64,000 nucleotides of DNA from assembly GCA_046116545.1 (NCBI GenBank), contig CP175956.1, forward strand, positions 897,734 through 961,733. Reading direction: 5' to 3'. Positions 3,365 through 63,802 of the stretch are shown piece by piece. Within the stretch, counting starts at the first letter, position 1. Every line of letters begins with the position of its first letter. The position numbers and the translations under genes are program-made. The stretch is from Candidatus Moraniibacteriota bacterium. Its GTDB lineage: Bacteria > Patescibacteriota > Minisyncoccia > Moranbacterales > GCA-2747515. The notes beneath the pieces are model-generated. The model saw only the letters and a list, made by a program, of their open reading frames with translations, did not search any database and had not been told where the DNA came from.

Positions 3365-3391
3365 CAATATTCACCACATTAAAATATCAAG

Positions 3392-3411
3392 TTATCCACG
3401 TGTTATCCACA
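3392..3411 (+). promoter_or_regulatory. Two tandem DnaA-box matches (TTATCCACG, TTATCCACA) spaced 11 bp, upstream of Pmra
   Basis: Direct match to the TTATNCACA consensus, twice, one helical turn apart. Confidence 0.35.
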
Positions 3412-3467
3412 TACAAAAAAACACGTGTTTAAAAACGTGTCCTTTCGATTTCTCTACAACTGTTTTT

Positions 3468-4112
3468 TTACGCACCTTTTACTAAACCTCTTCCTCGAAA
3501 AGATGCCTGACCTTTCATATGTAAATCTGGCCTCGTCAGCTTAGACGTGCGAATATTGTACCTGCGACCTAATTTCTCATCAAAAAGTTCATATTCTTCT
3601 TCAGACTTATCAAATGCCATATTTCCAGTAGAAACAACTTTTTTACTCACACCGACGACACCCCGAACGGCTCTTAATAATTCAAAATTTACAACATCAT
3701 CACTATGCATATTCCTATTATCACCAGAAGTCCTTGCACCATTTCTCGTTCGTGAAAAATTAGCTGAATGATGAGCTTTATCGAGCTTTGAAGTATGTGA
3801 CACTATTTTTGAAGGAAAATGTTTTTTTTGAACACTTTTCAAACCTAATTCTTTTGCAAGTATATCTATTTCTCTTTTGCTAAAATTATTATCATTACCA
3901 TATTTCAATGCTGCTAAAGCACTTTTCATTTCTCTTTCCGTAACTCCACCATTTCTATATTTCTTCAATTCATTGAATAGTTGTTTTTTTTCTATACTTT
4001 TATTTACAACATGTTTTTCACTATCTTTTTCTAAAATATCCTTCATTGCAGAACTCTTATGAGCTTTGGAACCCAATAATGATTTTTTTTTATATACAAT
4101 TTTATTTGACAT
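3468..4112 (-). CDS. Hypothetical lysine-rich protein
   Basis: 214-aa ORF with basic, low-complexity composition. A hairpin plus T-run terminator follows at 3411-3444 on the minus strand. Confidence 0.45.
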   Translation of the reverse strand: MSNKIVYKKKSLLGSKAHKSSAMKDILEKDSEKHVVNKSIEKKQLFNELKKYRNGGVTEREMKSALAALKYGNDNNFSKREIDILAKELGLKSVQKKHFPSKIVSHTSKLDKAHHSANFSRTRNGARTSGDNRNMHSDDVVNFELLRAVRGVVGVSKKVVSTGNMAFDKSEEEYELFDEKLGRRYNIRTSKLTRPDLHMKGQASFRGRGLVKGA

Positions 4113-9350: not shown

Positions 9351-9382
9351 AAAAAAATTATTTATTGATTGTAATATTATAC

Positions 9383-10636
9383 CTATTCAAATGGTAAATT
9401 ACTAGGTGCACTACCTTTTCTTGAATCTGACCATTGTACACTAGGAGCTTCTACCGACATATCCGGTAAATGAAATACCGTTGCCAATTCTTTTGTACTC
9501 AAATGAAATGGATAACCACTATCATCTCTATCACGATATCTTCTTAAAATTTTTCTCATTCTATATTCGCTTCTTGATTTTACACCAACATAATCAGCGT
9601 AAACTTTTGATCTATCAACTGGAATGAATTGATTTGTATGATTATCTGAAAACTGTTTTATTGAGGACATTGCACCACCAAGATTCACAGCAGTAAAAAA
9701 GTCTTTTTTTCCTACAACTATAAGTCTCATATTAACACTAAACATTGCTTTTGCAATGTTTTCTTCCAATACTTTTAATACCTGCTTTTCACCTGGACTA
9801 AGCTTAAACTCCAATGGTTGATCATCTCCAGCAGGAGTTTCAAATGCAGAAAATTCTGGAGGTGCATTCCACCCCACCATAATTCCGCCAAACACATCTT
9901 TTATATCAAACCATAATCTTGCAAATAATCCCTCTGGCTTTGCACTCTTTCCCAAAAAATCATCAACAGTTCCCTTACCCCAATCATTAAACCAAGGAGG
10001 CCTATCTGCTCTTATAATATACTGAAGCCACATATGTTGACCTGGACCAAGATTACCAATAGCTTCCAACATACTTGCTAGAGGATCCATCATTGTCCCA
10101 GTTACATCCTCATCAAAATATTCATATGTTTTGATTGGATATGCATCTGGTTTCAACAAAAATAAATCAAATCCTTTCAGTGTCCAATCTTCATTTGGAA
10201 TAACATTAGGAATATTCCCTGTATAATCTTGAACTTCTATTATTTCAACACTCGGATACTGCGCATAAAGAGAACTTTCAACTAAATCTCGAAAGGCTGC
10301 CGGTGTACGTATATAAAAATGTGCAGTACCTTCAGTACCTACTATTTCTAGACTAAAATATGGATTTCCAGCTCCATGACAATATGCACTTATCATATTC
10401 ACTCCTGCATCTGTTGCCGCGAGAGAATCAAAAAAACGTTCCATTATCTTTGGACTTTTTTCTATATCTCTAGGTGGTATAATCTCAAGCAAAACATCAT
10501 TTTGCTTCATGAGAAAGTCTGCTATAAACACATATCTTCCCCACAAACTTTTAAAGATTAACCAAAAAGTTATCGGCATGATTATAAACCAAGTCGACTG
10601 AAACGTCACAAAAATTTGTGAAAAAAATTCTGACAT
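9383..10636 (-). CDS. Membrane-anchored partner protein of the downstream ATPase (possible split N-terminal half of a coupling protein)
   Basis: N-terminal hydrophobic helices (WFIIMPITFWLIF...) followed by a 380-aa soluble domain. It lies 32 nt upstream of the ATPase gene on the same strand. Confidence 0.45.
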   Translation of the reverse strand: MSEFFSQIFVTFQSTWFIIMPITFWLIFKSLWGRYVFIADFLMKQNDVLLEIIPPRDIEKSPKIMERFFDSLAATDAGVNMISAYCHGAGNPYFSLEIVGTEGTAHFYIRTPAAFRDLVESSLYAQYPSVEIIEVQDYTGNIPNVIPNEDWTLKGFDLFLLKPDAYPIKTYEYFDEDVTGTMMDPLASMLEAIGNLGPGQHMWLQYIIRADRPPWFNDWGKGTVDDFLGKSAKPEGLFARLWFDIKDVFGGIMVGWNAPPEFSAFETPAGDDQPLEFKLSPGEKQVLKVLEENIAKAMFSVNMRLIVVGKKDFFTAVNLGGAMSSIKQFSDNHTNQFIPVDRSKVYADYVGVKSRSEYRMRKILRRYRDRDDSGYPFHLSTKELATVFHLPDMSVEAPSVQWSDSRKGSAPSNLPFE

Positions 10637-10706
10637 TAAACTTTATTTTTATATTTTATAACAAAATTATGCACTTTTTTAGTACAAGTATAAATTCATT
10701 ATAACA

Positions 10707-11756
10707 TTAACTAGCATTCGTATCTAGTGTATAATCATGTCCATTTACCTTTTTTGCAATAAGACTAAGATTCACTCTAACTGTAGTTGGCTTTACATGT
10801 CTCACCTGTAAAACTTTTTCTACAATATCATCAGCTGGCATAGGGCCACCTGCTTCTTCCAAGATTTTTAAAACAATATCCTTTACAGTTCCTTCCTCAT
10901 ATTCATTAAAATTCAATGCATATACACCACGTCCAACCAGCACAAAATTGTCATCTCGTATCAATTCATTATGAACTGTTTGTGGATGTGATTTTTTACC
11001 TTTCTTACCTAAACCGTAATCATCTATAGCTTGTGCTATTTCACGAAAATGCATTGGCGTATCTTTTTCTTTCATTATAAGTAATGATTTTTCCCTAACT
11101 CCTCTTGGTGAAATTTCATCCCAACCACTAAGTCCCCATTTATCAAATGGATTCTTATCAATTTCACTAGATACTACCAAGTAGCTCTCCAATTTATTTA
11201 AATCCATATTTTCCTGAACATTTGACATTTTTTCTTGCAATCGTTCACTCGAATATGTTTTTTGCTTATCTTCAAATATATTCTTTATAGAATCATGCAT
11301 TTCACTCCATTCATCCATATCAAATTCAGTAACAACAACAGAGCCTTTAATAACTGGATGTTTTTTTGAATTCACATAAGAAATTTCATCCATCCCTTCC
11401 ACAAGAAATCTAATCGCACCTTTTTCTTTATTATTTTCACCACCCAATTCCAATAGCTTATCAATATGCAAAACACCTCCATTATCACCAATTTCTGCAA
11501 TTATTTGTTTTTTAACATTATCTACTTCTTCTGAAGAATTAACATTTTTATTCATCTTAAGACCAGATTGAACAATTTGCCTGACTCTCTCACGAGTAAC
11601 ACCATATTCATCACCTATTGCCTGTAAAGTCTCTGGCTTTTCCAAACCAACACCAAAACGCCTTTCAACTATGGATTGTGACCTTTCTGGCATATCAGAT
11701 AATATCACTCCCAATACCTCATAAAATTGACTACTGTTATTATTTGTGCTATTCAT
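10707..11756 (-). CDS. DNA-binding protein: N-terminal sigma-70 region-4-like HTH plus C-terminal HARE-HTH-like domain
   Basis: TLQAIGDEYGVTRERVRQI resembles sigma70 region 4.2. The C-terminal segment VKDIVLKILEEAGGPMPADDIVEKVL resembles the HARE-HTH of the RNAP delta subunit. Confidence 0.5.
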   Translation of the reverse strand: MNSTNNNSSQFYEVLGVILSDMPERSQSIVERRFGVGLEKPETLQAIGDEYGVTRERVRQIVQSGLKMNKNVNSSEEVDNVKKQIIAEIGDNGGVLHIDKLLELGGENNKEKGAIRFLVEGMDEISYVNSKKHPVIKGSVVVTEFDMDEWSEMHDSIKNIFEDKQKTYSSERLQEKMSNVQENMDLNKLESYLVVSSEIDKNPFDKWGLSGWDEISPRGVREKSLLIMKEKDTPMHFREIAQAIDDYGLGKKGKKSHPQTVHNELIRDDNFVLVGRGVYALNFNEYEEGTVKDIVLKILEEAGGPMPADDIVEKVLQVRHVKPTTVRVNLSLIAKKVNGHDYTLDTNAS

Positions 11757-11888: not shown

Positions 11889-12414
11889 TATGAGTACAGA
11901 TCCAATTGTAAAATGTGTCTCCAGTGATGAATTACACGGTGATGCCAAGAAGATTTTTGAAGATTTTTTAGATAGTAGTGGAAAAGTACCTAAATGGCTA
12001 CAGGTTATGGGGAATTGTGAAGATACAATGACTGGTTTTTTTTCTCTATTTAAATCAGTAATGGATAACGAACCAGCACCAAGTGAATTAAAGTGGAAAG
12101 TGGCTTATGTCGTATCTGACATAAATAAATGTGAATTTTGTATAGGAGCAACACAATCTAAACTTAGTGGTTTGGGCATAAGTGCTCAAGACCTAGAAAA
12201 CGTAGATAAAGCTGAGGATCCAAAGGAAGCTTTAGCTATAGAGTATGCACGTGCTACAACAGAACATGCATATAGCATTGACCCTGAGTTAACAAAGCGA
12301 ATGCAAGATGCATTCTCTGATGAAGAAATTGTTGAAATAACTGCTGTTATTGGAACATTTAACTTTCTCAATCGTTTTAATGACGCTTTAAGAATTCTTC
12401 CGGAATCTAAATAA
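11889..12414 (+). CDS. Carboxymuconolactone decarboxylase (AhpD-like) family protein
   Basis: CMD-domain-like helical protein with a CEFCIGATQ (CxxC) motif. The start is placed at the ATG downstream of the promoter; the track start at 11797 lies upstream of the promoter. Confidence 0.65.
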
Positions 12415-20035: not shown

Positions 20036-23000
20036 TTAATTAACAATAAACCAATTAAATAAGAGATTTTCTTCAGATATCACATCCACCACAATCTTGA
20101 AGAATTGTTCAGCTTGGTTTTCTTCTACAAAAAACGTATTCCCAATCATATCACTAATAGGCGTCACAAACACACGACTACTCTCATGAACTCCATCACT
20201 TTCCACAATAACCTCCGTCTCCCCAGCAACTATAGTAGCAGTTCCAATTGAAGAAGCATTGATTTCATTACCTTGTTCATCTTGGGTTGTTATGTTGTCA
20301 TTGATATTTAATGTATTTGTTTGGATATTATTCACTTTTAAATCATCTAATACAGTTAGGCCTTCTAATGTAGTAACTGGTCTTGTAATCTCTGTTGTAG
20401 TTTCTGTTGTAAACAAGAATCTTTCATTTATTGCTAGTACTGTATCTGAGTTTGTTGATACTATACTTGCTAGAGTTATTTGATCTTGTTCTAGTATATC
20501 CATCCTATCTTCTATTTCTTGTATTGTCTCTGTTGCTAATTTATTTGCATCTATTTGTAGGGATAGGTCACTGACCTGTCCTTCGATATGGTTAAACTTA
20601 TCTTCAATATCATTTAGATTTTCATCTACTGACAACTGTAAATCTTGTAATGTTTGGATATTTGTATTTGTTTGTAATATTGTGTTATTTATTTGAGTAT
20701 CAATTTCACTTATTTTTTCTGGAGTTGGTAGATTTGATATATCTATCAGATTTAGATTTGGTATTTCTAATCCTGTTGTTATATCTGTAATATATATTAG
20801 TTGTTGTCCTGTTAGTTTTTCTATCAATCTTACTGTTTTTGTCATATCTACATTTATTGATTTGTTGTCTTTTTCAGAGTAATAGCTCCATGCTAGTTCT
20901 TCACTTTGTCCTCCTGGTATATTTGAGAAATTATGTGGAGATAGAGTTGTTGTATTTCCTGCTTCATCTCTTACTCTTAGTTCATGGGAACCACTTTGAT
21001 CTACTGCAAATAGTTGTATTCCGTCTGTTATTGATGTTGTTGGGGCTATTGAGTTTGAGATTGTTAGGATATTGTCTGCATTTGTTCCGTAGTTGTTACT
21101 TCCTATTCCTACGTTTCCTGATGTGTAGGCTATGTTGTTTCCTGTTTGGGTCCAGAGTGATGATGCGCTTGCTCCTCCATTTATATCCCATGCGTATATT
21201 CTATATTCTCCTGTTGTCCATCTATTATCTCCCACTGTATTGCCATATGTATTTGTATTATCACCAGAAAATACGTAATCATTTGCAGTTGCTAAATCGA
21301 ATGTATTATCATCTTTAAATAATAAATAATGTCCAGACATTTCTGAAGTGCTTACTTGCGTACCAAATTGAGCAGTAGCATCCCAAACACGACCATTTGG
21401 ATCTTTAAATAAAACTGTTGTATTTAATTCTGAAGTTCCTAAATTATGAGTTAGTTGATAATTATTTTCTTTTGTAACAGCAACCCATCCGCTATCATAA
21501 TCAGGAAGATCCGCTCCACTACCCACAGCATCAGCACATTCCCATTCACTATTTATTTCATTATATGAAAGAGTTTGACCATTTGTGCATGTTGGTAATG
21601 AAGTACTTCCTGATGATTCTTCTATTTTCCAGATTTTTAAGTCTGTAAAGACAGCTGGGTCACTATCAGCAACACCACCTAATCCGATAACATTATTTAC
21701 TTGTGTATAATGAATTACTTTTATAGCTGTTGTCTGTGTTAATGTGATTTGTCCAGATGCTCTCACAGGTACCGTTGCTGCGTCAGCAGGATCACTATAT
21801 AATGTAGAGCCCACCAATAATACATTATCATTTTCATCATCAATACGTAAATTTGTTCTTTGTACTCTTAATGCTGGTGCTTCTACATCTATATAATATG
21901 TACCTACTGGCAACGTTACTTCATTTGCTGTAAGTGCTGTCTCTGCAATTTCATTTATCAAAATTGTATTAAGTGTTCTATGGTTATCTCCTGTACTTGC
22001 ACTACCACCATCTGAACCTGTTGTTTTTTGATCTTGTACATGCATGAGACTCCATGACTGACCTCCACTAATTCCTGAACCAGTAGTAGCATTCAAATTC
22101 ATTACCACCATACTACCATCATCACAATTAACCCAATTTGATCCATCGTACGCTTGCCATATTCCACTTACAAATTTTAAAGATGAACCCATCCTTCTTG
22201 AACTCACACTGCTTATAGTACAAGAATCAGCTATGTAGTTAGAAGTACCTATTACAGTTCCACCTATATTTGTAGCAGCCTCTCCACATCCAACTACATC
22301 ATCAGTTCCATCTCCATCAGATTGTTCATTTGTGCAGTGTAAGAAAATGTTATCTCCGCCTCCACTCAAACTGTCAGCACATTCCCATTCACTACTTGTT
22401 TCATTATATGAAAGAGTTTGACCATCTGTACATGTTGGTAATGATGAGGATGAAGAACTTCCTGCGTATTCGTATATGATAACTGCTCCATTTGCTCCAA
22501 CTGCAGCAGAAGATGCACCACCTCCAGCTCCACCTCCACCTGAACCATATGCACTACCAGCACCAGCACTTGTACTATTATAAGAACCGCCTGTACCACC
22601 ACCACCAAAATATGATGCACCACCAGTACCTGCATTACTATTTATATTTCCAAAACCTGTCCCTCCATCACCACCATCCGTATTTATATCTCCATCAAAA
22701 CCAGAACCACCTGCACCACCAGCTTGTGTATTACCTGAACTTCCACCAGTTGCTGATAATAATGAACCAAAAGAAGAGCTTCCACCTCCATTATTTACTG
22801 TACCCCCAGAACCAATTGTTACTGTCTCACTTGATATTTCTGAGACATCAATAATTTCTTCTGCATAACCACCTGCTCCACCACCTCCAGATGTTTGAGC
22901 AGAACTTCCACCACCACCTGCACCAACAACTTGAACACGAATAGTTTCAATTCCTACTGGTTTTGTCCATGTATGTGCTCCTGCTGTATCAAATGTTTGA

Positions 23001-26000
23001 ATTGATGCTATTCCTCCTCCACCTGAACTTCCACTATCTGTACTAAAAGCACCCCACTGCGTTCCATTACAAAACTCCATGACTTTTGTTGAGTCATTGT
23101 ATCTCATTGCACCTTCTTTGTTTACATCACATGCATCTGTATCATTTGTTAGAGTTATTGATCCTGTTAAGTTTATTGGTGCTGAAAACTCTATTTCATT
23201 TGATATTGTATTATATGATATTACTGCTTCATTTCCATCTTCTCCTATATGTAATGATGATGGTCCTAGGTATAGATCTCTAAATCTATTTGTTGAAGAT
23301 CCTAGGTCGTATGTATCATCTGTATCTGGTCCTATATTTCCTGCTACTTGTAATGTGAAGTTATCTGGAGTTGTTGTTCCTATTCCTACATTACCTAAAT
23401 CATAGTAAATGTCAGATCCACTTTGTGTCCAGATATCTGAATATGCCACACTACTACTTCCACCACTAACTTCTACACTTACTTCGACAGTTCCACTAAA
23501 TGATTCTGGTAATACAGCATACTCAGTAACATCATCACCAGTTGATCCTGTAATGAACATTTTTGTACCATCATTATTGAATGCAATACCTTGTGCTGAC
23601 GTGTCCTGTGCAAGTACACCAAACTTAGAACTATACACAGCAGTAGATACATCAAATGCATTGGAAAGATTGTACTCGTTTACTTCATCACCATTACTTC
23701 CCACAATAAACATCTTTGTTCCTTTGATATTAAAAGTAATATCTTGTGGTCCAGTTTCTTGTGCTGCAACAGAGAAATTAGAATCATATACTGTGGTAGA
23801 TATATCAAATCCCGTTGAGAGATGGTATTCATTAACATCATCACCTGTTACTCCTGTGATGAACATTTTTGTACCATCAGTATTAAATGCAATCCCCGTT
23901 GGAGAGTCTTCTTGTACGGTTATATCAAACCTGGAATCATATACTGCAGTGGACACATCAAATGCAGTAGAAAGATTATATTCATTTATTTCATCTGCTG
24001 TATTTCCTATAATAAACATTTTTGTTCCATCAGTGTTAAATGCTATGCCTTGTGGTGCAGCATCTTCTGAAAAATCAAAAATAGAATCGTATACAGCTGT
24101 TGTCACATCAAATGCGGTGGAGAGATGATATTCATTGATATCAGTACCTGTAGCACCCACAATAAACATTTTTGTTCCATCAGTATTAAATGTAATACCT
24201 TGTGGTGAAGTATCTTGCGCTGCAACACTAAAGCTAGCTGAATAATCGACAGGACTAAATTCAAATCCTCTTGGAAGATGGTATTCATTCACATCATCAC
24301 CCGTTGTGCCTGTAACGAACATTTTTGTACCATCATTATTGAATGCAATATTTTGTGGCAAAGACTCTTGTGCACTCACACTAAATCTGAAAACAAAATT
24401 TGCTGTAGAAATATCAAAACCAGTTGAAAGTTCATATTCATTAATATCAAGACCTACAGAACCAGTTATGAACATTTTTGTACCATCACCGTTAAAAGCA
24501 ATACCTGTTGGCGTAGTGTCTTGCGCTGCAACAGAGAAATTAGAATCATACACTGCAGTAGACACATCAAATCCTGTAGAAAGATGGTACTCGTTTATAT
24601 CATCACCTGTATTTCCTACAATGAACATTTTGGTTCCATCGGTGTTGAAATCAATGCCTTGTGGTGCAGTGTCTTGCGCTGCAACAGAGAAATTAGAATC
24701 ATACACTGCAGTAGACACATCAAATCCTGTAGAAAGATGGTACTCGTTCACATCATCACCACTTGTCCCAACAATGAACATCTTTGTACCATCAGTATTA
24801 AAAGTAACATCATTCGGAGCAGTTTCTTGTGCTGCGACAGAGAAATTAGAATCATACACTGCAGTCGATGTATCAAATCCTATTGAAAGATGGTATTCAT
24901 TGACATCATCACCTGTAGTTCCTGTGATAAACATTTTTGTTCCATCGTTATTAAAAGTAATTCCATTTGGCGCTGTTTCTTGTGCTCCAACACTAAAATT
25001 AGAATCAAATGTTGCAGTTTCACCAACAGTAAACCCTTCACTCACAGATTCAATTTTGATATTATCACTTGCGATTACATCGAAATAGTTATAATCATCA
25101 TCAATTAAACCTATCGTATGTTGCAAAACATCATCAGCAAGAACTCTCATAGAGCCAGTTGATAAATTTTCTGTGTCCACGACAACACGATAGAGACTTG
25201 TTTCCGTAAGGTTCTCAAAAGCAGTCCATGTCTCTGCTGTTGTAAATGTATGATTTAATCCTGATGTTCCTGTTGATAGTCCTCCCCAAGCAGTTCCATT
25301 ACAAAACTCCATGACTTTTGTAGTGTCATTGTATCTCATTGCACCTTCTTTTGTTACGTCACAAGCTGATGCGTCATTATTTAGAGTTATACTTCCTCCT
25401 ATTGCTAGATTGTTTCCATCATATGTGAAGTTTGAGTTTTGAGTTATTGCATTTCCTGCACTATTTGCAAATTGTATTTGATTTGCACTTAGGCTTGCTG
25501 GTGTATCTGTTAATCCTGTATATGTTGAAACTCCTCCACTTGATGTTAGAGAGTTCCATGTTGAACCATCGTATCCTTCTAGGTCTGTTCCTGACCATCT
25601 TATCATTCCTGCTACTGCATTTGTACTTGTCCCAAATACTGCTGCTTTATCAAAGTTGAAAGCTTCGTTTGTTGTATCGTAGCTTATTATTCCTTCATTT
25701 CCGTTTGTTCCTATATGTAGAGAGTTTGGTCCTAGGTATAGGTCTCTGAATCTATTTGTACTACTTCCTAGGTCGTATGTGTCATTTGTTGATGGTAATA
25801 AATTTCCTGTATTTGTTATTTGCAATCTTTCTACTCCATTTGTATCGAATCTTATTGTATCATCATCTAACTCACCTTTATCTGTTTGTATCCCTGTATC
25901 AGTATCTGCATCCCAAAGTGAAGCTAAGTAACCTCCCCCTGCATTGCTTGTTGATTTTATACAGTATAGGACATTTATGTTTGTTGGTCTTGTTTCGTTT

Positions 26001-27436
26001 CCTCCTGAATTTGCACTATTGAATGCTGCTATATCTACTGTGTGCGTATGTGCGCCTGCATAGTTTGTGTAACCAGTATTAAGAGTTGTGGTTGTAAGCC
26101 CAATAGCAACCCTCAGAGTTCCAGCTCCACCCGATGGTGTCGCTCCAGAAATTGAATGCCTGTGATTTCCAGTTGAATTTGTACTAGTACTAGGAGGATC
26201 AACAGAATGAAGATGAGCTTCATTTTGTCCATCTTGCATTGAACCAACAACATCCCCAGTAGTCCCATCACCTCTATCAGTACGACTTGCTGCATCAGGA
26301 TCTGTTCCTGCACCGTTGTCCCAACCTCTTAAAAACTGTCCCCTGTAATCAGGGATATCAAATGTTGTTGAACCATCTCCACTTCCATATGTATCTCCTA
26401 GTATTGTATATAGATCTGGATAACCTGCTCTTGATATTTCTTGACCTTCTGCAGATATATAGTTAGTTGGACATGAGTTTGTTGCAAAGGCTACTACTGT
26501 ACCTGCTGGAACTGTTTCACCTGCACCTCCTGATCCTGAACCTGTACTTAGCTCTTGCCAGTCTGATCCATCACAAAGTTCTAAAGTTTGATTTACTGAA
26601 TTATATCTTGTTGTCCCTGCTAAAACTGGAATACATGCACTTGATTCATTTCCTATCTTTATCCCTCCATTTACATCTAGAGTTGTTGCTGGTGTATTCG
26701 TATTTATTCCTAATCTATTATTTGAGTTATCCCAAAAGAAATTTGTATTATCTTCTTCTATTGCTGTAGGAGATGTGAATAGTACACTTCCTGCAGTATA
26801 TGCACTCATTGTATCTACTAATCCTAAAAATGTATTATCTATCCAATCTGTTCCTGTAGTCGTTGAAGATAATATTTGTCCATTAGTCCCTGCATTTATA
26901 TTTGAATCATAAAGTATTCCACTTACTGATAGATCTCCATCTATTGTTAAATTTGCATTCTTTGTTTGATTTGTTGTTGAATTCAAATAGTAATCTTCTG
27001 TTTGTCCATTAAATCTATGTGAGTTTAAAGCAAAACCTGTAGGAGTTATCTTTCTCCTTGGAGTCATTTCTGGATTTGAGTTTATTGTTACTCCTAAGTA
27101 ATAGTTTGAATCAAAAGATATATCTAATAGGTTATCTCCTGTTTCTCCTAGAGTTGTACTAAATATTCCATTTGTTATTGTAATTGTTTTTGAAGTTGGA
27201 GTTCCACATGATCCTCTACTTGTCCATAGACAATTTCCTCCTGTGTCTGCATCGTATATTGTTAATGTAAAATCATAATCTCCATCTGATACTGCTACGT
27301 TATTAGTATCTGTTAGTTTTCCATGATATGTTAGTTCACTGTCTGGTGCAGCTTGTGTAATTGAAAAATTAAGAATTATTGCTAACGCAATTATTCCTAA
27401 TATGTAAGTTAATTTGTTTTTGAAAGTTTTTTTCAT
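20036..27436 (-). CDS. Giant secreted or cell-surface protein (2466 aa) with phage tail-fibre-like modules
   Basis: The N-terminal signal peptide is MKKTFKNKLTYILGIIALAIILNFSITQA. A tail-collar-like segment reads ...YPDLYTILGDTYGSGDGSTTFDIPDYRGQFLRGWDNGAGTDPDAASRT...HTHTV. About 12 tandem 43-44-aa repeats follow (...P.GI.FN.DGTKMFI.G..GDD.NEYHLSTGFDVSTAVYDS.FSVAAQ). There is a Gly-rich domain (TFDTAGAHTWTKPVGIETIRVQVVGAGGGGS...) and a duplicated LPTCT(D/N)GQTLSYNE..SEWECAD module. A C-terminal coiled coil is present, and there is no C-terminal TM helix. Confidence 0.8.
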   Translation of the reverse strand: MKKTFKNKLTYILGIIALAIILNFSITQAAPDSELTYHGKLTDTNNVAVSDGDYDFTLTIYDADTGGNCLWTSRGSCGTPTSKTITITNGIFSTTLGETGDNLLDISFDSNYYLGVTINSNPEMTPRRKITPTGFALNSHRFNGQTEDYYLNSTTNQTKNANLTIDGDLSVSGILYDSNINAGTNGQILSSTTTGTDWIDNTFLGLVDTMSAYTAGSVLFTSPTAIEEDNTNFFWDNSNNRLGINTNTPATTLDVNGGIKIGNESSACIPVLAGTTRYNSVNQTLELCDGSDWQELSTGSGSGGAGETVPAGTVVAFATNSCPTNYISAEGQEISRAGYPDLYTILGDTYGSGDGSTTFDIPDYRGQFLRGWDNGAGTDPDAASRTDRGDGTTGDVVGSMQDGQNEAHLHSVDPPSTSTNSTGNHRHSISGATPSGGAGTLRVAIGLTTTTLNTGYTNYAGAHTHTVDIAAFNSANSGGNETRPTNINVLYCIKSTSNAGGGYLASLWDADTDTGIQTDKGELDDDTIRFDTNGVERLQITNTGNLLPSTNDTYDLGSSTNRFRDLYLGPNSLHIGTNGNEGIISYDTTNEAFNFDKAAVFGTSTNAVAGMIRWSGTDLEGYDGSTWNSLTSSGGVSTYTGLTDTPASLSANQIQFANSAGNAITQNSNFTYDGNNLAIGGSITLNNDASACDVTKEGAMRYNDTTKVMEFCNGTAWGGLSTGTSGLNHTFTTAETWTAFENLTETSLYRVVVDTENLSTGSMRVLADDVLQHTIGLIDDDYNYFDVIASDNIKIESVSEGFTVGETATFDSNFSVGAQETAPNGITFNNDGTKMFITGTTGDDVNEYHLSIGFDTSTAVYDSNFSVAAQETAPNDVTFNTDGTKMFIVGTSGDDVNEYHLSTGFDVSTAVYDSNFSVAAQDTAPQGIDFNTDGTKMFIVGNTGDDINEYHLSTGFDVSTAVYDSNFSVAAQDTTPTGIAFNGDGTKMFITGSVGLDINEYELSTGFDISTANFVFRFSVSAQESLPQNIAFNNDGTKMFVTGTTGDDVNEYHLPRGFEFSPVDYSASFSVAAQDTSPQGITFNTDGTKMFIVGATGTDINEYHLSTAFDVTTAVYDSIFDFSEDAAPQGIAFNTDGTKMFIIGNTADEINEYNLSTAFDVSTAVYDSRFDITVQEDSPTGIAFNTDGTKMFITGVTGDDVNEYHLSTGFDISTTVYDSNFSVAAQETGPQDITFNIKGTKMFIVGSNGDEVNEYNLSNAFDVSTAVYSSKFGVLAQDTSAQGIAFNNDGTKMFITGSTGDDVTEYAVLPESFSGTVEVSVEVSGGSSSVAYSDIWTQSGSDIYYDLGNVGIGTTTPDNFTLQVAGNIGPDTDDTYDLGSSTNRFRDLYLGPSSLHIGEDGNEAVISYNTISNEIEFSAPINLTGSITLTNDTDACDVNKEGAMRYNDSTKVMEFCNGTQWGAFSTDSGSSGGGGIASIQTFDTAGAHTWTKPVGIETIRVQVVGAGGGGSSAQTSGGGGAGGYAEEIIDVSEISSETVTIGSGGTVNNGGGSSSFGSLLSATGGSSGNTQAGGAGGSGFDGDINTDGGDGGTGFGNINSNAGTGGASYFGGGGTGGSYNSTSAGAGSAYGSGGGGAGGGASSAAVGANGAVIIYEYAGSSSSSSLPTCTDGQTLSYNETSSEWECADSLSGGGDNIFLHCTNEQSDGDGTDDVVGCGEAATNIGGTVIGTSNYIADSCTISSVSSRRMGSSLKFVSGIWQAYDGSNWVNCDDGSMVVMNLNATTGSGISGGQSWSLMHVQDQKTTGSDGGSASTGDNHRTLNTILINEIAETALTANEVTLPVGTYYIDVEAPALRVQRTNLRIDDENDNVLLVGSTLYSDPADAATVPVRASGQITLTQTTAIKVIHYTQVNNVIGLGGVADSDPAVFTDLKIWKIEESSGSTSLPTCTNGQTLSYNEINSEWECADAVGSGADLPDYDSGWVAVTKENNYQLTHNLGTSELNTTVLFKDPNGRVWDATAQFGTQVSTSEMSGHYLLFKDDNTFDLATANDYVFSGDNTNTYGNTVGDNRWTTGEYRIYAWDINGGASASSLWTQTGNNIAYTSGNVGIGSNNYGTNADNILTISNSIAPTTSITDGIQLFAVDQSGSHELRVRDEAGNTTTLSPHNFSNIPGGQSEELAWSYYSEKDNKSINVDMTKTVRLIEKLTGQQLIYITDITTGLEIPNLNLIDISNLPTPEKISEIDTQINNTILQTNTNIQTLQDLQLSVDENLNDIEDKFNHIEGQVSDLSLQIDANKLATETIQEIEDRMDILEQDQITLASIVSTNSDTVLAINERFLFTTETTTEITRPVTTLEGLTVLDDLKVNNIQTNTLNINDNITTQDEQGNEINASSIGTATIVAGETEVIVESDGVHESSRVFVTPISDMIGNTFFVEENQAEQFFKIVVDVISEENLLFNWFIVN

Positions 27437-30654: not shown

Positions 30655-30727
30655 GGGCCAGTAGCTCATCTGGTAGAGCGCCTCACTTGCACTGAGGAGG
30701 TAGCGGGTTCAAGTCCTGTCTGGTCCA
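30655..30727 (+). tRNA. tRNA-Ala (anticodon TGC)
   Basis: Cloverleaf GGGCCAG...CTGGTCC with a G3:U70 pair and anticodon loop CTTGCAC. No CCA is encoded. Confidence 0.85.
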
Positions 30728-30759
30728 CAACTTCACAATGCACAATAAAAAAATATTAA

Positions 30760-30833
30760 GGGCGATTAGCTCAGCTGGTTAGAGCGCGTCACTGATAATG
30801 ACGAGGTCCGAGGTTCAAGTCCCCGATCGCCCA
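30760..30833 (+). tRNA. tRNA-Ile (anticodon GAT)
   Basis: GGGCGAT acceptor, anticodon loop CTGATAA, T-loop GGTTCAAGTCC. Confidence 0.85.
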
Positions 30834-30837
30834 CATA

Positions 30838-59318: not shown

Positions 59319-59390
59319 TGGGCTGTAGCCAAGCGGTAAGGCAGCGGATTCTGGTTCCGCTATGCGTAGGTTCGAATCCTACCAGCCCAA
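59319..59390 (+). tRNA. tRNA-Gln (anticodon CTG)
   Basis: U1:A72 acceptor pair (TGGGCTG/CAGCCCA), D-loop GCCAAGCGGTAAGGC, anticodon loop TTCTGGT. Confidence 0.8.
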
Positions 59391-59425
59391 CTAGAAAACA
59401 CCCCGATTTACCCCCCTTTACACAC

Positions 59426-59599: not shown

Positions 59600-60799
59600 C
59601 TATACTCTAGCAATTTTCTTTTTCAAAAAAATGTCTCCTATCAAATAACTGATTGTGATAACTACAAACATACTGGCAGCAGCTAATACAAAGCTCACAT
59701 TAAATATATTTATTGTAACTACCAAAGCTCCAAAAAAAATCATATTTGAAAACATATGTACAGTATTCCGCCAAGTCGACGCTGAAAGAGTGTCTAGTTT
59801 TTCACCTTTTTCATAAATATAACTATCCAATGGAATACTGATTAGGATTGTAAATATTCCAACTAAAAAAATACTTAGATAATAGAATAAACCATTATCA
59901 ATTACTATCCTCATTACCCAAACAAGCGCTATTAAAGCACTGCCAACAGCTATCATAACATTTCGTCTTTGTCTTGTAGCCTTCCCTGTCCAATATGTAA
60001 AAATGATTGTTGTTAAAGATATAATAATTGGTATAGCCGCAACCGATTCTATGTTTGCAAAAAATAAATATATGAATAATGGCCATATCACATTTTCTGC
60101 CTGACAATGAACACTATAAAAGCCTGTTGCAACATAATCTTTAACTACGTACCAACTATTAAAAAATTCTTTAAATGTTTTTTGATCTCTCTCTGGTTTA
60201 TCTGGAAGGTTTTTTATTTTAAATAGTGGGATAATAGAAGAAATAAGAAATATAATACTAACAACAATTAAAGCTTTCTTACTGAAAAAAATCAACACTA
60301 GCACACCTAAGAAAGGTGCTATCATACCGGCAATCTTTCTTACAATTGCTAAAGTGCTCGCGTCACCTGAAACATTGTCATCGTTTTTGCTACACTTCAT
60401 GAATAGATACAAATGAGCTATCCAATAAAATGTATCATATATTGCAGCAAATATTGCCACACATACAAGCAATGTCCAATCGTTTGTAGTTAAATTGAAC
60501 AAACCAATGAAAAATGCAATTGAAAATAGAGAACCTATTATTATAACCTTTCTTGCACCTATCTTCCTCACTAACCATCTAGCAAAAAAATTTAATGGAA
60601 TATCAAAGAGATTATACAAAAAATAATAAATCATGATCTCACCAATTTCATATCCAACCTGCAATAAGAAAATTGGAATAAATACAGCAATCATTGCACG
60701 TGAAAATGCATGTAACCAAATAGAAAGTTCGAAAAGCCAAAATTCAGAATGAATTAATTTATGTATGTTATTTTGATGATGGATATGAAATAATTGCAT
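59600..60799 (-). CDS. MFS-type transporter
   Basis: About 12 TM segments in two halves with an MFS-like loop motif. Confidence 0.55.
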
Positions 60800-61130
60800 T
60801 TTTGATATTGTTACGACTCTTTAGCTACAATTATACCACAATTGTAATATCCCAAAATGAATATCATCTACTGTTACACTATGACTTGTAAAATATATAA
60901 ATCTGACATACTCCCCATCCTATTTTTTATTTCTTGCTATGAAATAATATGTATCAACAGTTAGTGTTGTTTCTTTAAAAATTTCTTTATAGATCCTTTG
61001 ATGACTCAACGTAGTCATCCAGAATTTCGGTCATTTTCTTTTTTCTTTCCATACGCTGTTTTTGATATGGCTGAAAACGCTGTAAATTATTGAAAGTTCG
61101 AGGTCTGGCTCGATACGGGCAACTTTTTTA

Positions 61131-61170
61131 CAAAAAAAAATCAGACTTAGAATATTTTCTAAGTCTGATA
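61131..61170 (-). terminator. Terminator for the 61189-61587 gene
   Basis: ATCAGACTTAGAA-tatttt-TTCTAAGTCTGAT with a 9-A/T run. Confidence 0.7.
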
Positions 61171-61188: not shown

Positions 61189-61587
61189 TTAGCAAATGGT
61201 AATTATACAATCACCATCCTCATCGCCACTCGTAGGATTTCCATAGCGACTTTCACATTTTCGCAAAGCCACCATAGTGACATCTGAAAACCATTCCCTA
61301 TTGAGAGATTTATCAAATGCCTCCAGAAGTACCTCAAGGTCATCCATTAAGGAGCTTGAAAACGAATTTATCACTGGTCCCCACATGCAATCAAATTGCC
61401 TTGTACCCATATCATCTCCATTTTCATCAAAAATGTTATAGGTAGTACAATTACGACTTGTTGAAATACAAATAATATGTATTTTTTTGTCTGGGGGTAA
61501 ATTTAACCCCATATTCACATCAATGAAAAGGGTTGCATGGTAATCTTTTTCACGTTTTCTAAAAGATGCTGGTAACTGTGCATTCAT
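61189..61587 (-). CDS. Hypothetical protein (132 aa)
   Basis: AAGGAGA RBS; no recognisable domain. Confidence 0.4.
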   Translation of the reverse strand: MNAQLPASFRKREKDYHATLFIDVNMGLNLPPDKKIHIICISTSRNCTTYNIFDENGDDMGTRQFDCMWGPVINSFSSSLMDDLEVLLEAFDKSLNREWFSDVTMVALRKCESRYGNPTSGDEDGDCIITIC

Positions 61588-61640
61588 GATTATCTCCTTG
61601 GTTTTTGAAATATTCTAATTTATTATTAATGTAACTGATA

Positions 61641-61669
61641 ATAATAGCATATATTTATCAATTTGTCAA
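61641..61669 (-). promoter_or_regulatory. Consensus promoter TTGACA-17-TATTAT
   Basis: -35 at 61664-61669 and -10 at 61641-61646, both on the minus strand. Confidence 0.5.
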
Positions 61670-61707
61670 TCACTACCATTTAGATTCTACTCCAAAACTG
61701 AAGTCAG

Positions 61708-61738
61708 AAGCGTTCGAACCTCATCCCATAGGGCCAAC
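61708..61738. promoter_or_regulatory. 31-nt conserved element, copy 1 (AAGCGTTCGAACCTCATCCCATAGGGCCAAC)
   Basis: It lies exactly 38 nt upstream of the -35. A 29/31-identical copy is at 62567-62597. Confidence 0.5.
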
Positions 61739-61783
61739 AAATAAAAGTTACTTTTTGTCAAGAAAATTTTTAATTTTTTAGAA

Positions 61784-61817
61784 TAAAAAAAGACATAAGG
61801 GAGGTTACCTTATGTCT
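61784..61817 (-). terminator. Terminator for the two-gene small operon
   Basis: AGACATAAGG-gaggtta-CCTTATGTCT with an A/T run. Confidence 0.65.
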
Positions 61818-61877
61818 GTACTATTTTAACAACATTGTTGATTCCTTCTTTTCATTTTTTTGATGTATTTACATCTT

Positions 61878-62084
61878 CTAACGATAAAAATGTTGTGTGT
61901 ATGTTTGTGCACCTTTTCGTGCTTGAAATGCATGTCCTTGTCCTGCTGCATAATCATCTATTACCATAACTTGACCACTTGGTATCCAACCATCTTCCAA
62001 TGCTTCTTGCACTTTCTGATGAAAGATATCTACCATATGTGGACATGGACAAGACTGAGTTACTGTTTTTGATTCTCGTTTCAT
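61878..62084 (-). CDS. Hypothetical small protein (68 aa) with SCPCPH...H motif
   Basis: It follows the 87-aa gene after 23 nt, with an RBS-like AAAAGGTGA. Confidence 0.4.
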   Translation of the reverse strand: MKRESKTVTQSCPCPHMVDIFHQKVQEALEDGWIPSGQVMVIDDYAAGQGHAFQARKGAQTYTQHFYR

Positions 62085-62107
62085 AATTCACCTTTTTCAT
62101 ACAATGC

Positions 62108-62371
62108 TTAATCTTGAAAAAAATGAGCAATTGAAGAATCATAATCTCTAATTGCCTGATTCGCATTTTCGAGTGCTTGACGAGTCTCTTCTACGTATTG
62201 AGCAGAATAACCAGATCCCGGTCCCTGAAATTCCTCACTTATACGAGACAAAGTATCTCCAAACTGTTTCAAATAAAATGATGCATCAGATGGAGAAGTA
62301 GTCAATCCTTCAGTAGTTACTCGTTGACATTCTTCTATAAGCATATTGCATTCTTCTACATGGGAATTCAT
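62108..62371 (-). CDS. Hypothetical small helical protein (87 aa)
   Basis: Predicted helix-turn-helix hairpin with central QGPGSGY; long 5' UTR. Confidence 0.4.
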   Translation of the reverse strand: MNSHVEECNMLIEECQRVTTEGLTTSPSDASFYLKQFGDTLSRISEEFQGPGSGYSAQYVEETRQALENANQAIRDYDSSIAHFFQD

Positions 62372-62499
62372 AATTAAACCTCTTTACATTTAAAGTTTAA
62401 AAACTAAACAAAAAACACCTCTTTACATCAACTTTATTTATCTATAGAAATCACCTCCTTTTGTTGAATTTATGTTTTATTATTAAAAGACAATATTTA

Positions 62500-62528
62500 A
62501 TAATATATCAAAAGTGACTTTTTGTCAA
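62500..62528 (-). promoter_or_regulatory. Consensus promoter TTGACA-17-TATTAT
   Basis: -35 at 62523-62528 and -10 at 62500-62505 on the minus strand. Confidence 0.5.
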
Positions 62529-62566
62529 TATCAAGAACCTACATTTTAATCCGAAGAAAAGAATAA

Positions 62567-62597
62567 AAGTGTTCGAACTTCATCCCATAGGGCCAAC
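62567..62597. promoter_or_regulatory. 31-nt conserved element, copy 2 (AAGTGTTCGAACTTCATCCCATAGGGCCAAC)
   Basis: Exactly 38 nt upstream of the -35, the same spacing as copy 1. Confidence 0.5.
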
Positions 62598-62895
62598 GAT
62601 TTTTGAATAAACAAAAAACCCACCAAAGCAGATTTTCTGCTGATGGGTTATAATCTACTTTCTAATGTAGGAAGATTATTAAGTATTTCCTCTATTTCAT
62701 TAAAAATTTCATATATTGAATCAATGTGGTGGTTGTCGTGCAAGAGGATTAATTCAAAATGGTGATTATCTTGCCAAAGATCCACATTGCTGGCTTTGAT
62801 TACATTCACAGTATTTGCATTTATAACAAGTCACAATCCATTATAGAGAGTGACTTGTCTTTTTTTAAAAATGATTTTCTTATATACTATAAAAT

Positions 62896-63424: not shown

Positions 63425-63672
63425 TTAATTGAACCTTTGATTTACTGCTTCATTTCTAAAATCTTTAAAAATTTTTAATGATTTTTCCTGTAATTCCATA
63501 GTATGATCTCGACAAGTCTCCCTATCGATACCTTTTTCCTTAGTGAATACACTAAAAAAAGATTCTTGAAAATTTCCAAATACCATACAATAAGCATCAT
63601 CTACTCCATAGCAATCTATCGCTTTTTCAATTTTCTCAATATATTGAATAACATCTCCTAATGTTGCCATTT
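63425..63672 (-). CDS. Hypothetical small protein
   Basis: GGAGGA RBS 7 nt before ATG 63672 (MATLGDVIQYIEK...); the track ORF starts further upstream. Confidence 0.4.
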
Positions 63673-63802
63673 TAATTCCTCCATTTAAATTTACTTGCAA
63701 TTTTATATTTTAAAAAAATATTTCATGTTCTGCCATATATTGATAACTAATTTGCAACATTAAATAATACTATGATTTTATTATTTTGTCAATACTAGCA
63801 AA

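Follow-up and report, generated by a model that had tools for sequence, protein, structure and literature searches.

A conserved 27-base repeat at the joints of small gene cassettes beside tRNA-Gln in a Candidatus Moraniibacteriota bacterium: a putative att-type site

Why should two unrelated small-gene cassettes of a Candidatus Moraniibacteriota bacterium each be preceded by the same 31-nt element, at exactly the same distance from the same promoter? We addressed this question in a 64-kb stretch of the genome (here called the window; positions are those of the window). A sequence-only reading had described a single gene and a two-gene operon, each transcribed from a TTGACA-17-TATTAT promoter lying 38 nt downstream of the element and each ending in its own terminator. 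It proposed that the element is either the operator of a dedicated transcription factor or a cassette-associated recombination site, and that the locus may be a small, co-regulated, effector-like island. Our analysis indicates that the 31-mer contains a conserved 27-nt core, GTTGGCCCTATGGGATGARGTTCGAAC (gene sense), found in Candidate Phyla Radiation (CPR) bacteria at the joints between small, self-expressed gene cassettes stacked against the 3' end of a tRNA gene. An att-type recombination site, rather than a promoter operator, is the best reading of this core, although it is held with only about even confidence.

First, the observation itself was examined, and it was confirmed. Exactly two matches to the 31-mer lie in the window; they are identical at 29 of 31 positions, and no match occurred in 100 shuffles. 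The ORFs, promoters, terminators, and the 38-nt spacing are present as described, with the genes on the minus strand (Table 1). Four points required correction. The sequence flanking the element, described as not conserved, is not wholly unrelated between the two copies: the two 38-nt spacers match at 18 of 38 positions in the same register (83 of 10,000 shuffles do as well), which is residual homology. A third, decayed copy (E0) follows the terminator of the 132-aa gene; it was not significant by nhmmer and is accepted only on synteny with a recognizable copy in a related locus. A third TTGACA-17-TATTAT promoter in the window has no element, so the promoter architecture is generic to this organism. 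Finally, the three proteins had been described as lacking recognizable domains, but the 68-aa protein has a borderline DUF1737 hit (23.7 bits against a cutoff of 24), and the 132-aa protein belongs to a conserved family with 24 cluster representatives.

Table 1. Features of the cassette array and its surroundings in the window. Related loci used for comparison are designated by L numbers; promoters are consensus matches without transcript data.
Feature	Position	Strand	Description
tRNA-Gln(CTG)	59319..59391	+	3' end (..CCAAC) faces the array; its last 5 nt are the reverse complement of the first 5 nt of the core (GTTGG)
MFS transporter gene	59600..60799	-	tRNA-proximal unit between E0 and tRNA-Gln; inferred to be the last cassette
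E0	61096..61127	-	Decayed third copy (GTTGCCCGTATCGAGCCAGACCTCGAACTTTC), directly after the terminator of p132; at the position orthologous to the degenerate core L027:10311-10350, behind the homologous gene and terminator
Terminator of p132	61140..61169	-	Intrinsic; homologous to the terminator behind its homologue P0003 in L027
p132	61189..61587	-	132 aa; member of a small conserved family (C-terminal KCESRYGNG..GDCIITI); confident alpha/beta model without a significant match among solved structures
Promoter of p132	61641..61669	-	TTGACA-17-TG-TATTAT; promoter and 5' UTR homologous to L013 and L003, where they lie upstream of unrelated genes
E1 (31-mer)	61708..61738	-	Core at 61712-61738; followed, in gene sense, by a type-1 tail (..TTCAGTTTTGGAGTAGAAT..) shared with L003, L005, L017, and L027
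Terminator of p87-p68	61791..61817	-	Intrinsic
p68	61878..62084	-	68 aa; ORFan; SCPCPH motif; borderline DUF1737 hit
p87	62108..62371	-	87 aa; ORFan; predicted three-helix bundle
Promoter of p87-p68	62500..62528	-	TTGACA-17-TATTAT
E2 (31-mer)	62567..62597	-	Core GTTGGCCCTATGGGATGAAGTTCGAAC at 62571-62597, read on the minus strand; nhmmer E value, 6e-14
Terminator of the 53-aa ORF	62612..62648	-	Ends 14 nt before E2; homologous to the terminator that precedes core L020:1011, behind an unrelated gene
53-aa ORF	62648..62809	-	Chromosomal-side flank of the array; called as a gene in L024-L026
Promoter without element	63792..63764		TTGACA-17-TATTAT

To determine if the element is private to this locus, genomes and metagenomes were searched for the core. 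It was found in 6 genome loci and 16 metagenome loci of CPR bacteria (Moraniibacteriota and Paceibacteria MAGs and metagenomes), with 39 copies carrying at most 4 mismatches and further degenerate ones. One contig (L005) carries up to 6 copies in 4.5 kb, while one exact-pattern scan gave 2 to 4 exact matches per MAG. Among 18 copies, the mean pairwise identity of the core is 0.93, whereas that of the flanks is 0.30 to 0.42, against 0.29 expected from composition. In the AT-rich lineage, to which the window belongs, every copy lies after a terminator and before the next co-oriented gene, and those genes are small, mostly ORFans, and unrelated to each other. The same 22 nt of the core are kept in a distant, more GC-rich lineage with entirely different flanks, where most copies are followed by the 3' end of a convergent gene, with no promoter. 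That the element might be part of a longer duplicated segment had been named in advance as a finding that would refute the sequence-only reading, and this proved half true: the shared segment is longer, but the core is conserved far better than the rest of it.

The 38-nt spacing was examined next. The equal spacing in the window is inherited from a shared junction module of about 100 nt (terminator, spacer, core, tail, and promoter) and is not kept across the family, where the distance from core to promoter is 8, 14, about 39, or 42 nt. Measured from GTTCGAAC, the promoter lies at 8 nt in L004, at 14 nt in L022:89, at about 38 to 41 nt to an extended -10 in type-2 tails, and at 42 to 44 nt to the -35 in type-1 tails; there is no common phasing. 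Homology breaks fall at both edges of the core. L004 and L022 match at 103 of 106 positions through the 3' end of a pentapeptide-repeat gene and the core, up to GAACAC, and then carry different cassettes. L003 and L005 have unrelated left flanks up to AGTTGG and from there are at least 90% identical through core, promoter, and gene start. The region between ftsX and tRNA-Gln also differs between the window and L004. However, promoter and terminator modules are shared among unrelated genes, so breakpoints also exist next to the ORFs, and homologous recombination between conserved modules could give much of the mosaic pattern.

The relation of the arrays to tRNA genes was then analyzed. In all 6 loci that contain a tRNA (the window, L004, and L013 with tRNA-Gln; L001, L002, and L008 with tRNA-Asn), the array points at the 3' end of the tRNA, and the array of L027 ends in a 22-nt tRNA-Gln 3' fragment. 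L005, L006, L003, and L022 show no tRNA in the sequence examined. The core starts with GTTGG where the tRNA is Gln (..CCAAC) and with GCTCC where the tRNA is Asn (..GGAGC). In both lineages the same module of terminator, spacer, and pentamer is joined to the tRNA end in some loci and to the core in others: L013 and L004 (tRNA) against L027, L017, and L020 (core); L002 (tRNA fragment) against L001 (core); and L001 (tRNA) against L014 and L007 (core). Likewise, a Peptidase_S51 gene (76% identical proteins) lies between two cores in L001 and between a core and tRNA-Asn in L008. The stretch shared with the tRNA is short, comprising only the terminal pentamer and the T-loop heptamer TTCGAAC, with 15 nt between them in the core against 10 nt in the tRNA; this therefore does not look like a classical att repeat that duplicates the tRNA 3' end. 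Local-alignment z-scores between tRNA junctions and core junctions ranged from 0 to 6.5. A region of about 200 to 250 nt upstream of the second-lineage copies, considered as a possible structured RNA, gave only weak consensus structures with RNAalifold on both strands. It is built from direct and inverted fragments of the local tRNA-Asn 3' end, which covary with the local tRNA (TTCGAGT in L002 against TTCGAAT in L008), and we read it as an att-site graveyard and not as an RNA gene.

The cassette genes gave no support for a co-regulated, effector-like island. No homologues of the 87-aa and 68-aa proteins were found that could lead to further loci, and there were no PADLOC, PHROGs, or informative Pfam hits. 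The 87-aa protein, which the sequence-only reading likened to a helical hairpin and suggested comparing with WXG100 proteins, has no Pfam hit; its model shows three helices with a QGPGSGYS turn and no WXG motif, and only generic helical-bundle matches were found, all with E values of at least 0.35. The core had no match in viral contigs, and the 191-nt E1 junction (window 61640-61830) had none in phage or plasmid records. Literature searches on integrons in Patescibacteria, on CPR intergenic repeats, and on the motif itself found nothing relevant.

These results suggested a working model in which the core is an att-type recombination site marking the joints of a tandem array of integrase-less cassettes accreted at tRNA-Gln. 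In gene sense the layout is [53-aa gene, terminator] E2 [promoter, p87, p68, terminator] E1 [promoter, p132, terminator] E0 (decayed) [promoter, MFS, terminator] GTTGG, followed by tRNA-Gln. Each site consists of the 5-nt stretch identical to the last 5 nt of the tRNA (as its reverse complement), followed by a conserved 22-nt arm, CCCTATGGGATGAKGTTCGAAC. In this view, (i) a recombinase encoded elsewhere exchanges strands in or next to the shared pentamer; (ii) an incoming circular cassette lands between the terminator of the previous unit and the tRNA, or between two cassettes; and (iii) the 22-nt arm is the element-side recognition sequence. The matching promoters and their spacing would be by-products of the junction module that travels with the site. 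The analysis itself demonstrates the family-wide conservation of the core, its position between terminator and next gene (in the AT-rich lineage), the mosaic flanks, the linkage to tRNA 3' ends, and the pentamer match, whereas site-specific recombination, the place of the crossover, the recombinase, and the mobility of cassettes as units are inferences. No integrase or other recombinase appeared in the Pfam lists covering window 52.9-64 kb and the 9 kb beyond, in other annotated parts of the window, or among the larger ORFs of eight related loci (L001-L004 and L006-L008 among them). No circular form (which would join the end of a cassette to its own start, as ..spacer-GTTGG|CCCTATGGG..), empty site, or excision product was seen. 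The symmetry of the core is also weak, since the arms GTTGGCCC and GTTCGAAC match at 5 of 8 positions across an 11-nt spacer, longer than usual for tyrosine recombinases. The interpretation offered by the sequence-only reading is partly supported: its recombination-site alternative gains support, its operator alternative is weakened, and the argument from identical spacing fails.

Other explanations were weighed against this model. An operator of a dedicated transcription factor is unlikely, although the core holds two small symmetric units (CCC-TAT-GGG and GTTCGAAC), lies upstream of promoter-like sites in the AT-rich lineage, stands equally far from the -35 hexamer in both window copies, and in one case (L006:2665) precedes an ECF sigma-factor operon. 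Besides the lack of phasing, the inherited spacing, and the promoterless second-lineage copies, this reading does not explain the pentamer-tRNA match or the interchangeability of core and tRNA end. No candidate DNA-binding regulator could be linked to the site. Equally unlikely, in our view, is a passive junction module that spread by duplication and now serves merely as a homology patch for RecA-dependent gene exchange, for example after DNA uptake, without a site-specific enzyme. The sharing of terminator and promoter/5' UTR modules between unrelated genes in several combinations, the residual spacer homology, and the absence of a recombinase from the sequence examined are consistent with it. 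However, the conservation of the core while the rest of the module has decayed needs selection on the core itself, the 22-nt arm persists in the distant lineage, and the prefix changes with the tRNA species.

A transcribed RNA element (a tRNA-like 3' fragment, a small RNA, or a 3' UTR or terminator-associated motif) appears very unlikely. The core does hold a T-loop-like GTTCGAA, its reverse complement can be written as T-loop, T-stem 3' strand, acceptor 3' strand, G, and CCA, hairpins flank it on both sides, and in the second lineage its reverse complement lies between a stop codon and a terminator. Nevertheless, ARAGORN made no tRNA or tmRNA call, Rfam gave no match at the gathering threshold or at E values up to 10, none of the 39 copies has a T-stem partner, and no intact tRNA with this 3' half turned up in the genome scan. 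In the AT-rich lineage the core lies after the upstream T-run and before the downstream promoter, outside the predicted transcripts, and covariation in the adjacent hairpin of the type-1 tail is weak (20 to 47 of 500 shuffles do as well). Nor is the core coding: its reverse complement reads ..SSNIIP*, but only one copy (L008) lies in a long ORF. Least likely is a miniature non-autonomous transposon (MITE, REP, or Correia-like) carrying a terminator and an outward promoter, which would account for a short, multicopy intergenic repeat with modules shared between unrelated neighbors. No terminal inverted repeats or target-site duplications were seen around the window modules, no inverted repeats were visible in the aligned copies, all copies in an array have one orientation, the same as the genes, few copies were found per MAG in one exact-pattern scan, the conserved part is the 27 nt and not the module ends, and the equivalence with the tRNA end is left unexplained.

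The element was also compared with known systems. Integron cassette arrays, especially sedentary chromosomal integrons with near-identical repeats such as the Vibrio VCRs, are likewise co-oriented arrays of small, mostly ORFan genes separated by a conserved repeat at which neighboring genes differ between relatives, and in both cases new units appear to be added at one fixed end (attI in integrons, the tRNA 3' end here). Here, however, no IntI-type integrase, attI, or Pc is adjacent, each cassette has its own promoter-like site and terminator, whereas integron ORFs are mostly promoterless, the array is anchored on a tRNA gene, and the conserved part is a defined sequence, not a conserved fold. 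The core does not fit the attC ends R'' RYYYAAC and R' GTTRRRY: GTTGGCC breaks GTTRRRY at the sixth base, no complementary RYYYAAC lies after the upstream stop codons, no imperfect palindrome pairs the ends, and the upstream hairpins are ordinary terminators with T-runs. Integrase-less derivatives of tRNA-gene integrative elements that accrete in tandem, such as the CIMEs next to ICESt1/ICESt3 in Streptococcus thermophilus, and island arrays at tRNA/tmRNA 3' ends share the tRNA 3' location, repeated sites in the orientation of the tRNA, units without an integrase, scattered tRNA 3' fragments (here in L027, L002, and L008), and content that differs between close relatives. They differ in that the repeated site here does not look like a copy of the tRNA 3' end, the units are very small (0.4 to 1.7 kb; one or two genes with their own expression signals), and the same 22-nt arm serves two tRNA targets in two lineages. 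The XerC/D-dependent pdif modules of Acinetobacter plasmids are also small gene modules bounded by sites of about 28 nt with the recombinase encoded elsewhere, but the core has no 11-6-11 architecture, dif consensus, or ATAA..TTAT core, its copies are all in direct rather than alternating orientation, and its location is chromosomal and tRNA linked. Mobile promoter or Correia-type intergenic repeats also supply a terminator to the upstream gene and a promoter to the downstream gene; here, no terminal inverted repeats were seen, few copies were found, the orientation is fixed, and conservation is concentrated in a core that is neither the promoter nor the terminator.

A more far-reaching possibility, which we regard as tentative, is that CPR bacteria of the Paceibacteria/Moraniibacteriota group have an integron-like gene-capture system of their own. 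The 3' end of a tRNA gene (Gln or Asn) would play the part of attI, the 27-nt site would play the part of attC, and a recombinase acting in trans would stack tiny cassettes that each bring a promoter and a terminator, resulting in variable arrays of ORFan minigenes in otherwise minimal genomes. CPR bacteria have very small genomes, and little is known about how they gain and vary accessory genes. A conserved junction site that strings self-expressed ORFan genes onto a tRNA 3' end would be a distinct route of gene capture in this radiation, resembling integrons in outcome but using a different site and anchor. The 27-mer would also give a simple sequence tag for finding the variable gene pool of these organisms in metagenomes, and the site could be used as bait to identify the recombinase. 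Even if the site proves to be only a regulatory or homology element, it is still a new, strongly conserved noncoding motif of this group.

The sequence-only reading had described two gene cassettes, each preceded by a shared 31-nt element at an identical distance from its promoter. To determine whether this description was accurate, the region was read directly. The pattern AAGYGTTCGAACYTCATCCCATAGGGCCAAC occurred exactly twice in the 64-kb window and not once in 100 shuffles, and the two copies (E1 and E2) were 29/31 identical. A consensus scan found a TTGACA-17-TATTAT promoter for each cassette, with 38 nt separating each 31-mer from its −35 hexamer, as well as a terminator behind each cassette; folding of the terminators was also examined. 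All genes here are on the minus strand. The observation was therefore accurate, with three details requiring correction. A third promoter of the same architecture, in front of a 91-aa open reading frame (ORF), has no upstream element, and the promoter form is therefore simply the consensus of this organism; this ORF also gave a weak PADLOC hit to PD-T4-10_B (E 0.002). The two 38-nt spacers matched at 18/38 positions in register, a level reached by 83 of 10000 shuffles, so that the flanks are diverged, not unrelated. Finally, a putative, decayed third copy (E0) follows the terminator of the 132-aa gene. Coordinates of the features in the window and in related loci (designated L followed by a number) are collected in the table.

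Coordinates of features in the window and in related loci
Sequence	Feature	Position	Strand
Window	Element copy E2 (31-mer)	62567-62597	
Window	Element copy E1 (31-mer)	61708-61738	
Window	Putative decayed copy E0	61096-61127	
Window	Predicted promoter of p87-p68	62528..62500	
Window	Predicted promoter of p132	61669..61641	
Window	Third predicted promoter, without element	63792..63764	
Window	p87 (87 aa)	62108-62371	−
Window	p68 (68 aa)	61878-62084	−
Window	p132 (132 aa)	61189-61587	−
Window	Predicted terminator of p87-p68	61817..61791	
Window	Predicted terminator of p132	61169..61140	
Window	91-aa ORF	63425-63700	
Window	19-nt direct repeat, two copies	61743-61761 and 62510-62528	
Window	tRNA-Gln(CTG)	59319-59391	+
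Window	tRNA-Ala(TGC) and tRNA-Ile(GAT)	30655-30834	
Window	2466-aa ORF	20036-27436	−
Window	Gene cluster with TrwB/TraG-like coupling protein	7569-11756	
L002	Stretch of tRNA-Asn fragments	4690-4870	−
L002	Stretch of tRNA-Asn fragments	3005-3200	
L008	Stretch of tRNA-Asn fragments	1520-1760	−
L014	Stretch of tRNA-Asn fragments	1170-1400	+
L027	22-nt tRNA-Gln 3' fragment	12369-12390	
L006	Core copy upstream of ECF-type sigma factor gene	2665-2686	
L006	ECF-type sigma factor gene	2918-3493	
L006	78/79-aa membrane-protein gene	183-419	
L022	78/79-aa membrane-protein gene	612-851	
L021	Two core copies without intervening ORF	3072-3252	

The window is about 32% G+C, and nearly all of its genes are on one strand. 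The exact 68-aa and 132-aa proteins are recorded from a Candidatus Moraniibacteriota MAG with a 1.29-Mb contig, and the contig continues beyond the window with rhomboid, ftsX, ftsE, and prfB. On the other side of the cassettes lie an MFS transporter gene, tRNA-Gln(CTG), and an HD-domain gene. Elsewhere in the window are a gene cluster encoding a TrwB/TraG-like coupling protein (593 aa), a DUF8128 protein (417 aa), and a Sigma70_r4/HARE-HTH protein (349 aa); a single 2466-aa ORF; and tRNA-Ala(TGC) and tRNA-Ile(GAT), which lie 32 nt apart in the order Ala then Ile. Rfam detected no rRNA gene anywhere in the window. A 19-nt direct repeat (18/19 identical; AAAAGTNACTTTTTGTCAA on the plus strand) was also observed. 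It constitutes the −35 hexamer and spacer of the p87-p68 promoter and recurs, without a −10, just after the terminator of that operon and directly upstream of E1, such that the operon is bracketed by a half-promoter repeat; by a rough estimate, about 0.08 such pairs would be expected by chance in this 3-kb stretch.

Next, the distribution of the element was examined. An exact-pattern scan of one genome per species identified six loci, all in Paceibacteria or Moraniibacteriota MAGs, and a metagenome scan identified sixteen more, while viral contigs yielded none. Allowing up to 4 mismatches gave 39 copies, and a profile search added degenerate ones. Written in gene sense, the conserved unit is GTTGGCCCTATGGGATGARGTTCGAAC followed by RNTTTT. 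The copies fall into two groups. In AT-rich Moraniibacteriota-like contigs, including the window, every copy lies after a terminator hairpin and T-run and before the next gene, in the orientation of that gene. These copies come in arrays (six in 4.5 kb of L005, three in 1 kb of L022, and three or four in L027), and the genes between them are small and unrelated, including those for Cys-rich, membrane, lipoprotein, and DKNYY proteins and an ECF sigma factor. The last of these (Sigma70_r2/r4_2) lies downstream of one core copy in L006 and is followed by two small ORFs; it is the only cassette-like unit seen that encodes a regulator. In L021, two core copies lie only 159 nt apart, with a promoter-like tail and a terminator but no ORF between them, resembling an "empty" cassette. 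In more GC-rich Paceibacteria contigs, the same 22 nt, CCCTATGGGATGATGTTCGAAC, follow a hairpin, but the 5 nt in front are GCTCC instead of GTTGG, and what follows is usually the 3' end of a convergent gene, not a promoter.

To ascertain where conservation is concentrated, 18 well-preserved copies were placed in register. Mean pairwise identity was 0.93 over the 27 nt of the core, 0.67 over the next 6 nt, and 0.30 to 0.42 further out, whereas composition alone would give 0.29. The tails after the core fall into subfamilies: type 1 has TTGAATTC-AGTTTTGGAGTA-GAATTCAA and then TTGACA at +43; type 2 has TTTATTGCAATAAA.. and then an extended −10 at about +39; and short forms have TTGACA at +9 or +15. 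Window copy E1 has a type 1 tail and shares 84% identity over 100 nt with L003, and its promoter and 5' UTR match L013, upstream of unrelated genes. Window copy E2 has a diverged tail of the same length. The identical spacing emphasized by the sequence-only reading therefore reflects common descent of a module of about 100 nt, and the family as a whole shows no constant or phased distance to promoters.

Comparison of related loci showed that the core is a joint between interchangeable neighbors. L004 and L022 match at 103/106 positions through the end of a pentapeptide-repeat gene and the core, as far as GAACAC, after which L004 has a 115-aa gene and then tRNA-Gln, while L022 has a 72-aa gene, a core, a 79-aa gene, and another core. 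Conversely, L003 and L005 are unrelated on the left up to AGTTGG, but from there they are at least 90% identical through core, tail, promoter, leader, and the start of a Cys-rich gene. The 132-aa gene of the window, its terminator, and E0 are orthologous to the gene for P0003 (a homolog of p132), its terminator, and a degenerate core in L027, although the upstream sides differ (E1 in the window and pyrG in L027). Terminator modules are likewise shared behind unrelated genes, namely, those of window E2 with L020:1011 and those of L005:3232 with L021:3072. The same 78/79-aa membrane-protein gene (83% nucleotide identity) occurs in two settings: in L006 it follows gatB directly, with no core upstream, and in L022 it is a stand-alone cassette between two cores. 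In both, a core follows it.

The relationship of the arrays to tRNA genes was then analyzed. In every locus that contains a tRNA, the array runs antisense to the tRNA and points at its 3' end; this holds for the window, L004, and L013 (tRNA-Gln) and for L001, L002, and L008 (tRNA-Asn). The HD gene and tRNA-Gln are syntenic between the window and L004, but the genes between ftsX and the tRNA differ. tRNA-Gln ends in ..CAGCCCAAC and tRNA-Asn ends in ..CGCCGGAGC, and the reverse complements of their last five bases, GTTGG and GCTCC, are exactly the pentamers that precede CCCTATGGG.. in the respective lineages. In an alignment of left-hand sequences, one terminator-and-spacer module (AAGCAATTCACTCAAATGAGAGAATTGCTTTTTAATTTGTCAAAA..GTTGG) continues as the tRNA (GCTGGTAGGATTCGAACCTACGC) in L013 and L004 and as the core (CCCTATGGGATGAAGTTCGAAC) in L027, L017, and L020. 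The same holds in the second lineage, where the module AAAAATCCCYTTTCGGGGA..GCTCC is joined to a tRNA-Asn 3' fragment in L002 and to the core in L001, and the module AAAAATACCCTTG..GCTCC is joined to tRNA-Asn in L001 and to the core in L014 and L007. Similarly, a Peptidase_S51 gene (76% identical proteins) lies between two cores in L001 and between a core and tRNA-Asn in L008. The core and the tRNA 3' end are thus alternative right-hand partners of the same left-hand sequences.

Fragments of tRNA genes were also found in these arrays. Where the next core would be, the array of L027 ends with a 22-nt fragment equal to the reverse complement of the tRNA-Gln 3' end (one mismatch), followed by unrelated sequence; this is the expected footprint of a separate element integrated in the T-loop of tRNA-Gln. 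The contig ends 60 nt later. Next to the second-lineage copies, stretches of about 200 nt in L008, L014, and L002 look like a highly structured RNA, with a 10-bp closing helix (GCTCCGCCGG/CCGGCGGAGC) and no Rfam match. They are in fact made of direct and inverted fragments of the local tRNA-Asn 3' end, one of them split by an inserted hairpin, and they covary with the local tRNA. The likely cause is repeated recombination at tRNA-Asn.

To gain insight into the cassette products, the three proteins were characterized computationally. Neither p87 nor p68 has a homolog among 5.8 billion proteins apart from itself. p87 was modeled from its single sequence as a three-helix bundle (pLDDT 78) with generic structural matches and no WXG motif, and p68 has a borderline DUF1737 hit. 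p132 belongs to a family of 24 cluster representatives (P0003 to P0026) with a conserved C-terminal motif, KCESRYGNG..GDCIITI, and invariant A107, C111, G116, G125, and D126. Its alpha/beta model is confident (pLDDT 88.6, pTM 0.83), but it has no significant match among solved structures and one unnamed viral match (TM 0.55). The subthreshold structural matches include RNase H-like folds (HIV RT chain B and RuvC-type resolvases), with TM at most 0.31; a small nuclease is a possibility. PADLOC and PHROGs scans of the cassette proteins gave nothing, and Pfam gave no other hit. Any effector or immunity role, as raised by the sequence-only reading, is hypothetical on present evidence.

Several alternatives to a recombination site were considered. 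A transcription factor operator fits the upstream position of the core in the AT-rich lineage but does not fit the variable distances, the copies without promoters, or the equivalence with the tRNA end, and it is considered unlikely. An equally unlikely alternative is a passive module, or one that provides only homology, which would account for the shuffled promoter and terminator modules but not for the sharp conservation peak or the identity of the 22 nt across lineages. An RNA element is more doubtful still, given that Rfam and ARAGORN searches were negative, that the core of the AT-rich lineage lies outside the predicted transcripts, that covariation is weak, and that the sequence is not coding. 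Least likely is a MITE-type transposon, since no terminal repeats or target duplications were seen around the window modules and the fixed orientation would not be explained.

The simplest account, which we consider about as likely as not, is site-specific recombination. In this view, a cassette in circular form carries the joint ..terminator-spacer-pentamer/22-nt arm-promoter-gene.., and exchange in or beside the pentamer takes place with the tRNA 3' end or with another core, which would insert the cassette and leave the tRNA intact; repetition would build the array. In the window, this would give [53-aa gene] E2 [p87-p68] E1 [p132] E0 [MFS] tRNA-Gln. Although the reality of the element and its conservation well beyond this locus were established by the analysis, this mechanism, including the recombinase activity, the circular intermediate, and recognition of the 22-nt arm, is inferred. 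No recombinase was seen in the annotated parts of the window or among the larger ORFs of the related loci, no circular junction or empty site was observed, and the symmetry of the site is weak. In addition, the breakpoints next to the ORFs show that other recombination also shapes these arrays.

The system works most like integron cassette arrays and like the tandem accretion of integrase-less elements at tRNA genes, but it fails defining tests of integrons and fits tRNA-site elements only in part. Compared with integrons, there is no attC architecture and no adjacent IntI, and the cassettes have their own predicted promoters; compared with tRNA-site elements, the repeat is not a full duplicate of the tRNA 3' end, with which it shares only the terminal pentamer and the T-loop heptamer TTCGAAC. 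No description of such a system was found in literature searches. The interpretation offered by the sequence-only reading, either a dedicated operator or a cassette-associated recombination site, is thus supported in part, with the recombination site being the better supported half. If this account is correct, the 22-nt arm would be the element-side recognition sequence, which would explain why it is kept across lineages while the pentamer follows the target tRNA.
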